The notes: generated by a model from the sequence alone, not told the origin. Counted from the stretch's first letter, positions 35,486 to 40,763 are shown. The stretch is 64,000 nt of DNA from Telluria sp. (GCA_035759315.1 DASTVB010000074.1:2195-66194), one strand, 5' to 3'. A program made the numbers and translations.

Positions 35486-36136
35486 ATGGCCGAACTTGAC
35501 GAAAAAGCAGGGCGACTGACGCTCAAACTGGTGTACTACGGGCCGGCGCTGTCCGGCAAGACCAGCAACCTGACGCGCCTGCACGACCTGCTGGCGGCGG
35601 AGATGGTGGGCGACATGATGATGCTCGAGACAGAAGGCGACCGCACCCTGTTCTTCGACCTGTTGCCGCTCGGCTTTACCGCGCCATCCGGGCTGGTGGT
35701 CAAGTTCAAGGTGTTCACCGTGCCAGGCCAGGTCGCGCACAACGGCACCCGCAAGGCCGTGCTGTCGCGCGCCGACGGCGCAGTGTTCGTCGCCGATTCC
35801 CAGGCCAGCCAGGCCACCAACAACGCGGTCTCGTTCGACAACCTTCTTTCCAACGCCGGCACGGTCGGCATCGACGTGGCGTCCTTCCCGCTGGTGGTCC
35901 AGTACAACAAGCGCGACATGGCCGGCGTGGTGCCCGAATCCGAGATCATGGAACGCTGGCGCGAGGCGCCGTGGCCGGTGGTGATGGCCAGCGCGCTGCA
36001 GGGGCAGGGCGTGCGCGAGACTTTCGGCGAACTGCTGCGCGCGGTGTACCGGCGCCTGGACGCCGAGTACGCGCTGCTGGAGCGCCACGGGCTTACCAGC
36101 GAGGCCTTCGTGGCTGCCGGCGGAGGTGCCGCATGA
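35486..36136 (+). CDS. MglA-family Ras-like small GTPase
   Basis: Collinear with Myxococcus MglA. KLVYYGPALSGKTSNL matches the P-loop, GDRTLFFDLLP matches switch I, FTVPGQV matches switch II, QYNKRD is G4 and ASAL is G5. GAGGAA SD precedes the start. Confidence 0.85.
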   Translation: MAELDEKAGRLTLKLVYYGPALSGKTSNLTRLHDLLAAEMVGDMMMLETEGDRTLFFDLLPLGFTAPSGLVVKFKVFTVPGQVAHNGTRKAVLSRADGAVFVADSQASQATNNAVSFDNLLSNAGTVGIDVASFPLVVQYNKRDMAGVVPESEIMERWREAPWPVVMASALQGQGVRETFGELLRAVYRRLDAEYALLERHGLTSEAFVAAGGGAA

Positions 36137-37365
36137 TCGAATCGCCACCCGAATTCGACCGCCAGGTGGCGCTCGCCGACATCCTCGGCGGCGTCCCGCG
36201 CAAGGCCTTCGACGCGGCGATGGAAGCGAGCGTCGGTGCGGCCTGGCGCCTCGCCGACAGCGACGGCAAGACGCTGCGCGAAGGCCCCGCGGCGCTGGGC
36301 GCGGATACCGTCGACGCGCGGCTGGTGGTCGACCTGGAGCCGGTCGGCACGCTGCTGCTGCCGGCGTCGAAGGCCGCATGGCTGGCCGGCGCCGCGCGCT
36401 GGGTCGAACTGCTGCTGGGCGCATCCAACCGCTACCGCATGGCGGCCGACCTGCACGTGGAGGCGGTGCACGCCGACCACCGCGAGCTGATGCAGCGCCA
36501 TGCCGAGCTGGCCGAGTCGGAGCAGCGCTACCGCACCCTGTCGGCGCAGCTCGAACAGCGCGTGCGCGAACAGGTGGCGGCGATCGAGCAGGGACAGCGC
36601 CGGGTGCACCAGGCCGAGAAGATGGCGGCGCTGGGCAACCTGGCGGCCGGCATGGCGCACGAGATCAACAACCCGATCGGCTTCATGCGCAGCAACCTGT
36701 CGACCGCCAAGGGCTACGTGGGACTGATCGCCAAGGCGCTGGCGCAGGGCGCGCCGGACCCCGCGGCCGCGCGGAGGCTGAACGAGATACTGACCGACTT
36801 CGACGCGCTGCTGGACGAATCGATGGCGGGCGCCGACCGCGTCGCGGGCATCGTTGCGGCGCTCAAGGCCTACACCACGGCATCGTCGGAAGCGGCTCGG
36901 CGCGAGCTGGCCGATCCCAACGAGGCGGTGCGGGGCGCGGCCCGGCTGGTGGGCGGGCTGCCGGAGGGCGTCAGGCTGGAACTGGCGCTGGGCGCGCTGC
37001 CGTGGTGCGCCTTCGACCGCGAAGGCGTGGCGCGCGTGGTGATGGCGCTGCTGGCCAATGCCCGTACCGCGATGAAGGGCCGCAGCGGCGCGATTCGCGT
37101 TGCCACCCGCGCCGACGGCGACTGGGTCGAGATCGCGGTCTGCGACGAAGGCTGCGGCATCGAGGCGGAACGGATCGGGCGCGTGTTCGATCCCTTCTAC
37201 ACCACCCAGGACGTGGGCGGCGGCATGGGGCTCGGGCTGACCGTCGCCGCCGACGTGGTGCGCGCGCATGGCGGGCATATCGAAGTCGAATCCGTGGCCG
37301 GCGGCGGAGCGACGTTCCGGGTGCGCCTGCCTGCGCGCCCCAACGACGGCAAGGAAGGACCATGA
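36133..37365 (+). CDS. Soluble histidine kinase with unassigned 130-aa N-terminal domain
   Basis: The ATG overlaps the GTPase stop (ATGA 36133-36136). No TM segment. Coiled coil, H-box AAGMAHEINNPIGFM, N-box LLANARTAM, G-boxes DEGCGI and GGMGLGL. Confidence 0.85.
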   Translation: MIESPPEFDRQVALADILGGVPRKAFDAAMEASVGAAWRLADSDGKTLREGPAALGADTVDARLVVDLEPVGTLLLPASKAAWLAGAARWVELLLGASNRYRMAADLHVEAVHADHRELMQRHAELAESEQRYRTLSAQLEQRVREQVAAIEQGQRRVHQAEKMAALGNLAAGMAHEINNPIGFMRSNLSTAKGYVGLIAKALAQGAPDPAAARRLNEILTDFDALLDESMAGADRVAGIVAALKAYTTASSEAARRELADPNEAVRGAARLVGGLPEGVRLELALGALPWCAFDREGVARVVMALLANARTAMKGRSGAIRVATRADGDWVEIAVCDEGCGIEAERIGRVFDPFYTTQDVGGGMGLGLTVAADVVRAHGGHIEVESVAGGGATFRVRLPARPNDGKEGP

Positions 37366-39609: not shown

Positions 39610-39927
39610 ATGACGAAGCGTTACAAGAGCGTAGAGCTGGACGAGGCCGCGGAAGGCGCGCAGCTGTTCGAGGACGTGCTCGACCGGCAGGGCGCGGTGC
39701 TGGTTGCGGCGCGCACCGAGCTGACCGCGTCGCTGATCCGTTCGCTGCAGCGGCGCGGGATCGACACGGTGATCGTGGCCGACGACAGCATGTCGCCGGA
39801 AGCGCTGGAGGAAGCGCGGGCGAAGGTGGCCGCACGGCTGGAGCGCCTGTTCGCCAGGAGCGGCGGGCGCGCCAGTGCGGAGCTGCGGCGGCAGGTGATG
39901 GAATACCGGTTGGAGCAGCTGTCATGA
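39610..39927 (+). CDS. Small (105 aa) hypothetical protein, DUF3391-like N-module (tentative)
   Basis: VELDEAAEGAQLFEDVLDRQGAVLVAARTELTASLIRSLQRRGIDTVIV resembles the N-terminal module that precedes many HD-GYP proteins. Its stop overlaps the next ATG (ATGA 39924-39927). Confidence 0.6.
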   Translation: MTKRYKSVELDEAAEGAQLFEDVLDRQGAVLVAARTELTASLIRSLQRRGIDTVIVADDSMSPEALEEARAKVAARLERLFARSGGRASAELRRQVMEYRLEQLS

Positions 39928-40763
39928 GCGCGGTGCCGATCGAAGACGTGGTGCGCGACATCCGCGAGCTGCCGGCGCTGCCTTCGGTGGTGCTGGAACT
40001 GATCGAGACCTTCGACAAGCCGGAGGTCGACATCGCGACGCTGGCCGACAAGATCTCGCGCGACCAGGCGCTGGCCGCCAAGACCCTAAGGCTGGCCAAT
40101 TCCTCCTTCTACGGATTGTCGGCCAAGGTCAAGACGGTCAACCAGGCGATCGTGGTGCTGGGCTTCGACAGCGTGCGCGCGCTGGTGTCGGCGGGCGGCA
40201 TCATCGACCATTTCCAGGGCGGGGGCGGGCCGGTTGACGCCACGCTGTTCTGGCGCCACGCGATCGCGACTGCGCTGTGCTCGCGCCACCTGGCGCGCGC
40301 GACCAGGCAGAACCAGGACCATGCGTTCATCGCCGGGCTTCTGCACGATATCGGGGAGCTGGTGCTGGCCACGCGCTTTTCGGCGCCGTACCAGCAGGCG
40401 CTGGACCTCGCCGCGCGCAGCGATTGCGGCCTGCTCAAGGCGGAGCAGGAGGTGCTGGGGATCGACCACCAGCGCGTAGGGCTAGTGCTGGCGCAGGCGT
40501 GGAGATTCCCCGACATGATCGGGCGCGCCATCGCGCATCACCACGCGCCGCAGCACGAAGACCTGGGGCGGCTGCCCGCGATCGTCCATGTGGCCGATGC
40601 GATCGTCGATGCGCTGGATTTGCTTGGTAACGAGTCGACGCTGGTGCCGCAACTGCAGGACAACGTGTGGGACAGCCTGGCGCTGGAGCCGGCGCAGCTG
40701 CGCGCGGTGTTCCGCGATACCGAGCTGCAGTTCGAGGAAGCCTGCCAGATCCTCGCGCCGTAG
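39924..40763 (+). CDS. HDOD domain protein
   Basis: LPALPSVVLELIETFDKPEVDIATLADKISRDQALAAKTLRLANSSFYGL..VKTVNQAIVVLGFDSVR...WRHAIATA...AGLLHDIGELVL. This is the typical HDOD pattern. Confidence 0.9.
   Translation: MSAVPIEDVVRDIRELPALPSVVLELIETFDKPEVDIATLADKISRDQALAAKTLRLANSSFYGLSAKVKTVNQAIVVLGFDSVRALVSAGGIIDHFQGGGGPVDATLFWRHAIATALCSRHLARATRQNQDHAFIAGLLHDIGELVLATRFSAPYQQALDLAARSDCGLLKAEQEVLGIDHQRVGLVLAQAWRFPDMIGRAIAHHHAPQHEDLGRLPAIVHVADAIVDALDLLGNESTLVPQLQDNVWDSLALEPAQLRAVFRDTELQFEEACQILAP

Follow-up and report, generated by a model that had tools for sequence, protein, structure and literature searches.

How bacterial Ras-like GTPases hand over their signals to effectors is largely unknown. 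In Myxococcus xanthus, MglA and SofG position the ATPases PilB and PilT (PMC4085708; PMC4316618), but they do so by unknown contacts, and SofG is without a known GTPase-activating protein (GAP). The locus considered here lies at positions 35,486 to 40,763 of a 64,000-nucleotide stretch of DNA from a metagenome-assembled genome of Telluria sp. (GCA_035759315.1 DASTVB010000074.1:2195-66194), hereafter referred to as the window. It begins with a triad of genes encoding an MglA-family GTPase, a soluble histidine kinase with a pairing-specific input domain, and a PilB paralog carrying a phospho-receiver (REC) domain. The triad forms one co-translated unit that is conserved from Oxalobacteraceae to Desulfobacterales; its catalytic motifs are intact, its GTPase bears a signature alanine in the P-loop, and no MglB or pilus genes lie nearby in the window.

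All parts of the triad belong to known families, and the coupling of a small GTPase to a kinase is precedented in conservons. The preliminary description of this locus named no characterized system of such composition, and no description of the triad was found in the searchable literature. The MglA/MglB systems of M. xanthus and Thermus thermophilus (MglA Group 1) are of the same fold and family, with ~45–50% identity to the triad GTPase, and have in common with it Arg53, Thr54, Gln82, NKRD, and SAL, as well as a link to type IV pilus ATPases. The triad GTPase differs in lacking a nearby MglB, in having Ala for Gly21, and in a C-terminal tail of ~20 amino acids (aa). Moreover, it is always co-translated with the kinase and the REC-PilB protein, whereas the neighborhoods of Group 1 MglA are reported to “vary widely” (PMC4316618). 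SofG of M. xanthus, which positions PilB/PilT with the bactofilin BacP, is likewise an orphan, MglB-independent, PilB-tied GTPase (PMC4316618; PMC4085708); no bactofilin gene, however, was seen in the window.

In conservons (CvnA kinase, CvnB Roadblock, CvnC, and CvnD GTPase; MglA Group 2), an MglA-family GTPase also adjoins and works with a histidine kinase (PMC4316618; PMC13343842). Conservons comprise a Roadblock protein, CvnC, and a membrane-bound HAMP kinase that carries an LPxR tail, but no response regulator, while the triad has a soluble PocR-like kinase, neither Roadblock nor CvnC, and a receiver-fused ATPase; the four-gene conservon composition was thus not found here. The c-di-GMP-gated or accessory extension ATPases MshE, PilB2, M. 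xanthus PilB, and TfpB of Acinetobacter baylyi are, like the triad ATPase, PilB-family motors with an N-terminal MshEN-type domain (PMC5013675; PMC11656802). What distinguishes the triad ATPase from them is an extra N-terminal phospho-receiver, a degenerate motif II, and its genetic wiring to a kinase and a small GTPase. A 2024 review of PilB regulation nowhere uses the word “receiver” (PMC11656802). Finally, REC-HD-GYP and HDOD genes are the commonest neighbors of the triad; the receiver of the ATPase is of the RpfG/HD-GYP type, and the C-terminal domain of these HD-GYP proteins corresponds to the 105-aa protein encoded next to the triad in Telluria. Unlike RpfG-type systems, the window contains no HD-GYP protein; the detached 65-aa domain and HDOD remain.

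The features of the locus, in window coordinates, are as follows.

35266..35485, + strand: 220-bp intergenic region, presumed promoter/leader of the GTPase gene
35486..36136, + strand: MglA-family small GTPase of the MglB-less “Ala21” clade, 216 aa
36133..37365, + strand: soluble histidine kinase, 410 aa, with an ATGA overlap with the GTPase stop
36154..36363, + strand: N-terminal domain of the kinase (aa 8–77), a reduced PocR/PAS-like alpha-beta module, predicted to serve in sensing/docking (AlphaFold2 (AF2) model, hidden Markov model (HMM))
37362..39593, + strand: receiver-fused PilB-type hexameric ATPase, 743 aa, with an ATGA overlap with the kinase stop
37437..37769, + strand: REC domain of the ATPase, RpfG/HD-GYP-type (conserved residues, PDB, NCBIfam)
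37878..38300, + strand: PilB N1D/MshEN-like domain of the ATPase, with a partly degenerate pair of cyclic di-GMP (c-di-GMP) motifs (alignment)
38427..39575, + strand: ATPase core, N2D and CTD (T2SSE, E 8e-129)
39610..39927, + strand: 105-aa protein, a stand-alone ~65-aa domain plus a helical tail (iterative HMM)
39924..40763, + strand: HDOD protein, 279 aa, with an ATGA overlap with the stop of the 105-aa gene

The five same-strand genes given in the preliminary description were recovered both by a six-frame listing of open reading frames (ORFs) and by an independent self-trained codon-usage caller, which agree on all five. Direct reading of the sequence confirmed the ATGA start/stop overlaps at 36133-36136, 37362-37365, and 39924-39927, as well as the single 16-nt gap at 39594-39609, the ATPase ending with TGA at 39591-39593 and the next ATG lying at 39610. 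The proposal that the genes form a coupled operon rather than a chance arrangement is upheld by the recurrence of the overlaps among related loci and by the preserved synteny.

Homologs of the GTPase were collected by scanning one genome per GTDB species with a degenerate pattern derived from the GTPase alignment, which gave 80 loci with identities from 69% to 40%, and the presence of the triad was scored by tblastn with the domains of the window. Every locus with a GTPase of at least ~51% identity and enough downstream DNA has a kinase followed by a REC-MshEN-T2SSE protein encoded directly 3′ on the same strand, while no locus with a GTPase below ~50% identity has the triad. The same triad pattern is seen in metagenomic and genome contigs of closer relatives. 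Triad GTPases form a single clade (neighbor-joining bootstrap 99/100) of 45 members including the window. L056 alone in the clade lacks the triad, and what it has is a decayed copy: at 9827-10775, it carries a GTPase with an internal deletion and DRTPFFN in place of DRTLFFD, followed by a remnant of the kinase N-domain, after which the sequence is interrupted.

The triad spans five orders, Burkholderiales among them, so that the synteny is conserved across genomes. Its carriers include Telluria, Massilia, Noviherbaspirillum, and Janthinobacterium (Oxalobacteraceae); Rhodoferax, Gallionellaceae, and Sulfuricella; Azonexus, Dechloromonas, Zoogloea, Azoarcus, and Aromatoleum (Rhodocyclales); Sedimenticola, Chromatiaceae, Oleiphilaceae, and Motiliproteus (Gammaproteobacteria); and Desulfosarcina, Desulfatibacillum, Desulforapulum, and Desulfoluna (Desulfobacterales). 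A −4 overlap joins the GTPase and kinase genes in 24 of 38 loci and the kinase and ATPase genes in 15 of 35. In a 2014 census of prokaryotic small GTPases, Daro_0968 of Dechloromonas aromatica and Dalk_0302 are listed as orphan “MglA Group 1” proteins with no neighbors noted, and the genus name Dechloromonas occurs a single time in the supplement containing the MglA and orphan-MglB tables (PMC4316618). Thus, the family has been catalogued, but the triad has not been recognized.

Against PDB, the GTPase matches the MglA crystal structures 3t12, 6hjh, and 5ymx with E 4e-39, the runner-up being Arl3 (E 3e-4), so that its initial assignment to the MglA branch holds and no profile search placed the 216-aa protein elsewhere. 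It bears GPALSGKT (in the P-loop context YYGPALSGKT), DRTLFFD, TVPGQ, NKRD, and SAL, and the G1–G5 motifs, the intrinsic arginine finger R53, T54, and the catalytic Q82 are invariant in all 45 clade GTPases. At the same time, the statement that it has “every hallmark” of MglA turned out to be too strong, because P-loop Gly21 is replaced by Ala across the clade. Ala occupies this position, equivalent to Gly12 of Ras, in 45/45 triad GTPases, while Gly21 is kept in 11 of 12 MglB-adjacent homologs and in the MglA proteins of M. xanthus and T. thermophilus. Substitutions at Ras Gly12 weaken GAP-stimulated hydrolysis, and the G21V variant of MglA is reportedly GTP-locked. Since Ala takes the place of this glycine, the triad GTPase is probably a slow, GAP-insensitive switch. 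Aside from Ala21, the clade-specific residues are A84, A91, S94, R95, Q109, and W158, of which A84, A91, S94, and R95 cluster in the helix after switch II, a location consistent with an altered partner surface.

The absence of MglB was addressed with a Roadblock HMM built from MglB genes flanking planctomycete homologs. The model detects MglB adjoining 12 distant homologs, but gives no MglB/Roadblock match within ±10 kb of any of the ~45 triad loci (best E above 5); its best match in the window has E = 18. Robl_LC7 was likewise not matched in Pfam scans of the ~40 called genes of the window, which leave out the stretches at 1-3.3 kb and 16.5-18.07 kb, where no genes were called. The reported lack of an MglB-like ORF in the flanks is therefore correct within the 64-kb window. 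Two candidates for a disguised MglB were discarded: the 105-aa protein has no Roadblock HMM match and represents the HD-GYP tail domain, and the kinase N-terminus was rejected as unsupported because Foldseek searches with AF2 models (predicted local distance difference test, pLDDT, 87–88) rank Roadblock 48th, with E 1.2. A MglA without MglB is known from Bdellovibrio, where it was reported to be permanently GTP-bound and pilus-associated (PMC6428892).

The kinase has a HATPase_c domain (E 7e-24) and a weak HisKA match in Pfam. Neither its H-box, MAHEINNP (H176), nor its N, G1, F, and G2 boxes, which include N309, D338xGxG, and GxGxGL, vary among 67 orthologs. In the AF2 model (pLDDT 87), the DHp–CA region is matched by Foldseek to HK853, ZraS, and WalK, whereas residues 8–77 fold into a small alpha/beta module (pLDDT 92–97) from which a single long helix (aa 78–204) leads into DHp. 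A Foldseek search of PDB with this N-domain gave nothing significant, the weak matches being of the PAS/GAF type (best E 0.13). Among 88 loci, the N-domain HMM matches triad kinases only, including those of Desulfobacterales, in which the domain has an insertion. Outside the triad clade, it matches both ends of the PocR region in the kinases of a sister clade (E 2e-9 to 5e-4). The kinase was initially described as soluble with an unassigned N-terminus; it is indeed soluble, but judging from the AF2 model and HMM matches, the N-domain is a reduced PocR-like (PocR/PAS-like) module.

The sister clade belongs to Myxococcota. Its GTPases (224–248 aa) mostly have Ala21 and lack MglB, and their genes are directly followed by an overlapping gene for a PocR-HisKA-HATPase_c kinase. 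The clade is probably SofG-like, as judged by length, taxon, and the lack of an adjacent MglB; unlike the triad, it lacks a REC-PilB gene, and the kinase with which its GTPases are paired contains a full PocR. This pairing, together with the homology of the N-domains, suggests that the pair of a GTPase and a soluble kinase is older than the recruitment of REC-PilB.

The third protein of the triad consists of Response_reg, MshEN, and T2SSE domains (Pfam). Its residues 173–740 are collinear with residues 22–584 of Geobacter metallireducens PilB (6olj, E 9e-132); it is also collinear with M. xanthus PilB (3jc8) and Thermus PilF, and these matches outscore that to EpsE/GspE. Of its first assignment as a receiver-fused GspE/PilB-family ATPase, the receiver fusion and the family stand, while full-length collinearity narrows the family to PilB-like. 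The hallmarks of PilB are all present, namely N1D-N2D-CTD collinearity, Walker A/B, Asp/His boxes, and the tetracysteine; 33 orthologs retain both Walker motifs (Walker A being GPTGSGKT), the His box, and the four Cys that bind Zn. Despite this, the protein scores below the curated equivalog cut-offs for PilB (TIGR02538, 558.3 vs. 675.65 bits), GspE (541 vs. 630), and TfpB (447 vs. 850). On these comparisons, it is a distinct PilB-like subfamily. Collinear N-terminal REC fusions make up ~15 of the best 150 matches among 50%-identity cluster representatives.

Across 33 orthologs, the receiver of the ATPase keeps DD, the phospho-acceptor Asp (SDxxMPxMxG), T, and KPW without exception. In PDB, it is best matched by 2rjn, a REC from a REC-HD protein, and NF053512 matches the ATPase with E 3.5e-51 over the REC portion only. 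Thus, the two-component hallmarks are found on both sides, in the H-box and the N/G1/F/G2 boxes of the kinase and in the DD, phospho-Asp, Thr, and Lys of the receiver. From the adjacency and overlap of their genes, which are the only grounds for pairing them, we infer that this kinase and this receiver are phosphotransfer partners.

The MshEN region aligns to MshEN 5htl (E 4e-5) and to the N1D of two PilB proteins, those of Geobacter and M. xanthus. The c-di-GMP motif of MshEN consists of two tandem 24-residue repeats, RLGxx(L/V/I)(L/V/I)xxG(L/V/I)(L/V/I)xxxxLxxxLxxQ (PMC5013675). Motif I of the triad ATPase, RLATVLHKHGLL....V...L..Q (RLA...G-LL....V...L..Q), is nearly canonical, with Gly3 changed to Ala, while motif II, PLLKEVVERGWS....V...L..E, has, in comparison with MshE and Geobacter PilB, lost Arg1, Gly3, and Gln24. 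Because motif II is degenerate, c-di-GMP binding by the ATPase is uncertain. A second MshEN-T2SSE ATPase of 546–603 aa, devoid of a receiver, is encoded ~700 bp 5′ of the GTPase gene in the Massilia genomes L002 (7656-9296) and L085 (6835-8646).

The last two genes of the cassette behave differently from the triad. The 105-aa protein matches no Pfam or NCBIfam family, and its best PDB profile match is a weak one to an insertion of RNA polymerase beta′ (residues 827–869, E 4e-4). An iterative HMM revealed that its ~65-aa domain (consensus L.pGMvLa.Dl...G.lLL..G..L...lI) is the C-terminal domain of the triad-neighboring REC-HD-GYP proteins in ~25 triad loci, and that it stands alone directly 5′ of the HDOD gene in the window and in L006, L008, L012, L015, L022, and L036. 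In L088, whose GTPase is 88% identical and which has the same helicase downstream as the window, an unannotated 108-aa gene takes the place of the 105-aa gene. Whether free or fused, the domain is typically encoded immediately 5′ of the HDOD gene, a habit that suggests a physical partnership of the two. The HDOD protein itself is matched by PF08668 with E 9e-62 (208.5 bits vs. a cut-off of 22.9) and by HD with 2.5e-8.

The position of these two genes varies. They follow the ATPase gene only in the window, L008 (Noviherbaspirillum Root189), and L088; they are missing from this position in Massilia, L004, L086, and L087, lie 5′ of the triad in Sulfuricella, and are found 3′ but on the opposite strand in Rhodoferax, L033, and L041. 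Consequently, the five-gene cassette proposed as a unit gives way to a conserved unit of GTPase, kinase, and REC-PilB, with the last two genes being accessory.

Neither is the locus a self-contained signaling module, as was originally supposed, since the triad mostly resides within a larger island of REC-HD-GYP, HDOD, GAF/PAS kinase, single-receiver, and GGDEF-EAL genes. The order in Sulfuricella, for example, is dCache-PAS-GGDEF-EAL-REC, the 105-aa homolog, HDOD, GAF kinase, REC-HD-GYP, REC, GTPase, kinase, and REC-PilB. A Pfam census of the flanks covered 109 proteins from 11 beta/gamma loci and 95 from 11 further loci (204 proteins, 22 loci), with the following counts.

Response_reg: 26 in the beta/gamma loci, 46 in the further loci
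HATPase_c: 14 in the beta/gamma loci, 20 in the further loci
HDOD: 6/109 in the beta/gamma loci, 12/95 in the further loci
HD-GYP (HD_5): 6 in the beta/gamma loci, 10 in the further loci
GGDEF: 7 in the beta/gamma loci, 7 in the further loci
EAL: 6 in the beta/gamma loci, 4 in the further loci

Among these 204 proteins, no pilus or secretion family has at least two members, save for two PilT-like ATPases in one locus. In the window, no pilin, PilC/GspF, secretin, or prepilin peptidase was found by Pfam scans of the ~40 called genes across 64 kb, and a regular-expression search of six frames detected no class-III (pilin) signal peptide, in agreement with what had been stated for the whole 64 kb. 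Besides the cassette, the Pfam content of the window comprises transporters, hydrolases, and many two-component/c-di-GMP proteins. Homologous cassettes are thus not embedded in type IV pilus or type II secretion system loci, and the possibility that the cassette is part of such a locus was rejected on the flank census and the pilin-signal search. The only pilin found among 88 loci belongs to L086, a relative with 83% identity, where a type IV pilin gene (7356-7895; EGFTLIELIVV, Pfam N_methyl) lies 106 bp 5′ of the GTPase gene.

In most loci, a receiver is encoded immediately 5′ of the GTPase, either as a single protein of 170–290 aa or as the C-terminus of a GGDEF-EAL protein. It is missing in the window, L002, L006, L010, and L011 and hence does not belong to the invariant core. 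Single receivers of 170–200 aa with a C-terminal EPGITxVxWxxDGSxxLD are seen in L016 (9440-9994), L024, L021, L012, L015, and L036; many beta/gamma loci encode such a receiver 3–40 nt 5′ of the GTPase, and the window has none. At the other end of the triad, in Azonexus and Dechloromonas, a gene for a hemerythrin-PAS-HisKA-HATPase_c kinase (L016, 14081-16060) overlaps the end of the REC-PilB gene, which may point to an input through the sensing of O2/NO or iron in Rhodocyclales.

On the best reading of these data, to which we would give about an even chance of being right, the GTPase gates a two-component pathway, and the pathway ends in a PilB-class motor that is regulated by phosphorylation and acts in trans on a type IV pilus machine. 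The N-domain of the kinase would read the nucleotide state of the GTPase and thereby set autophosphorylation; the kinase would then phosphorylate the receiver of the ATPase, which would relieve or impose control on the PilB-like motor, and c-di-GMP at the partly degenerate MshEN may contribute to this control. A motor without its own platform, pilin, and secretin would have to act in trans, and the ATPase would accordingly be an accessory, signal-gated extension ATPase for a type IV pilus machine encoded elsewhere. A precedent is TfpB, an accessory PilB paralog that has no machine of its own and serves one encoded elsewhere (PMC11656802). The 105-aa and HDOD proteins would be accessory and would connect the triad with a REC-HD-GYP/c-di-GMP branch as its companion, which adjoins the triad in most genomes and is reduced in this Telluria genome. 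Co-translated synteny, the greater age of the GTPase–kinase pairing, conserved catalytic residues, independence from MglB, collinearity with PilB, the positioning of PilB and PilT by SofG and MglA, the L086 pilin, and the c-di-GMP-rich flanks are all consistent with this pathway.

Several points weigh against it. The contact between the GTPase and the kinase, the phosphotransfer, the direction of the signal, and the target of the ATPase are what we infer from gene content and order. Since the N-domain of the kinase has no significant structural match, its role as a dock for the GTPase is a guess from adjacency, and since the islands hold several other kinases and RpfG-type receivers, adjacency may have picked the wrong partners. 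A high specificity for their own platform has been reported for PilB extension ATPases (PMC11656802), and sensing of c-di-GMP by the MshEN of this ATPase may have been lost. Moreover, pilus genes are absent in 87 of 88 loci and in the window, which equally fits a non-pilus output, and for Telluria the absence of MglB and type IVa pilus genes refers to the 64-kb window only. A bolder form of the same idea is possible but doubtful: the triad may represent a widespread unrecognized “G-protein-coupled two-component” pathway, in which an MglB-independent MglA/SofG-type GTPase would be the direct, ligand-like input of a dedicated PocR-like kinase, phosphorylation of the PilB-class motor would be its sole output, and the pairing of GTPase and kinase would be an ancestral trait that the SofG-like proteins of Myxococcota have as well.

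The lack of platform, pilin, and secretin genes, which are neither present in the window nor recurrent in the 22 census loci, is also what would be expected if the REC-PilB-like protein were a regulated ATPase or scaffold without a filament, feeding the state of the GTPase and kinase into a c-di-GMP network that governs, e.g., exopolysaccharide, flocculation, or biofilm. The dominance of c-di-GMP and two-component genes in the flanks speaks for such a role, as do the scores under the PilB, GspE, and TfpB equivalog cut-offs, and M. xanthus PilB is reported to be a signaling protein regulating exopolysaccharide (PMC5544727). Against it, Walker A/B, the His box, the tetracysteine, and the N2D-CTD architecture are strongly conserved, the protein is collinear with bona fide PilB across 570 residues, and a pilin gene adjoins the triad in one relative (L086). 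On balance, a filament-free ATPase is rather unlikely.

The wiring could also run in reverse, with the kinase and receiver-ATPase, or neighboring receivers, controlling the state or location of the GTPase, which would set polarity or recruit motility proteins as MglA/SofG do; the upstream receiver would then be RomR-like. For conservons, it has been proposed that the kinase has the GTPase as its output, and MglA binds the receiver-domain proteins RomR, FrzS, and AglZ (PMC4316618). The receiver directly 5′ of the GTPase in most loci would fit this scheme, but the window and the four loci named above lack it. The partner that never varies is the kinase, and no input module other than its N-domain is specific to the clade; reverse wiring thus seems quite improbable. 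It is highly unlikely that the GTPase belongs to an ordinary MglA/MglB polarity module with mglB elsewhere and that its adjacency to the kinase and ATPase is functionally meaningless, since, although the survey of the Telluria genome was limited to the 64-kb window and some triad Desulfobacterales also carry a separate MglA-MglB pair (Dalk_2485 vs. Dalk_0302), the translationally coupled triad is conserved across five orders, Ala21 is clade-wide as opposed to Gly in MglB-coupled relatives, the clade-specific changes cluster after switch II, and Dechloromonas is listed with orphan MglA only.

If the bolder “G-protein-coupled two-component” reading is true, the triad would provide a direct biochemical link, the first of its kind, between a small GTPase of bacteria and an ATPase of the pilus type. 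It opens three questions, namely whether a small GTPase can regulate a histidine kinase, whether a PilB-type motor can be switched by phosphorylation, and what replaces MglB; because the triad is co-translated and widely conserved, all three can be tested directly, in vitro as well as in hosts that can be cultured, among them Dechloromonas, Zoogloea, Azoarcus, Janthinobacterium, and Massilia. The triad thus offers a direct genetic handle on the control of pilus-type motors by small GTPases and two-component systems, and it supplies a defined set of partners for HDOD and for the 65-aa HD-GYP tail domain, both of which are poorly understood.

As for the surroundings of the cassette, no sigma-70 consensus and no notable promoter or terminator consensus was found in the 220-bp leader, nor did Rfam match any family there, c-di-GMP and other riboswitches included. 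An anti-phage defense system was rejected as well, PADLOC giving weak generic REC, P-loop, and HD matches only for the five proteins. The gene preceding the leader varies between relatives: in the window it encodes a NarL-type regulator, while in L088, L004, and L008 it encodes a GGDEF-EAL-REC protein. The NarL-type response regulator of the window is in turn preceded by a 1293-aa double kinase with the architecture GAF-HisKA-HATPase_c-REC-PAS-PAS-HisKA_3-HATPase_c, the two genes occupying 30697-35265 directly 5′ of the cassette. In L088, the closest relative, CheB and a REC-GAF-PAS-GGDEF-EAL-REC protein replace them. The 3′ neighbor of the cassette in the window is a DEAD-box helicase gene on the opposite strand.

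Two-component and c-di-GMP genes are unusually numerous in the 64-kb window as a whole. At 48551-51882, the − strand encodes a two-receiver hybrid kinase and a diguanylate cyclase of REC-GGDEF architecture. The cluster at 57424-61831, composed of a TonB-dependent receptor, a YfiR/HmsC-like DUF4154 protein, and a CHASE8-HAMP hybrid kinase, is reminiscent of c-di-GMP control modules of the YfiBNR type, except that it does not include a GGDEF gene. The GC content is 56–60% at 1-6000 and 16000-18000, as compared with 63–71% over most of the remainder, and no gene was called at 16.5-18.07 kb; these low-GC stretches may be foreign or non-coding DNA. Finally, two RNA features lie on the − strand, a tRNA-Arg(ACG) at 61958-62034 and, at 57214-57274, a match to the Betaproteobacteria toxic small RNA (Rfam RF02278) with 64.9 bits against a gathering score of 50.

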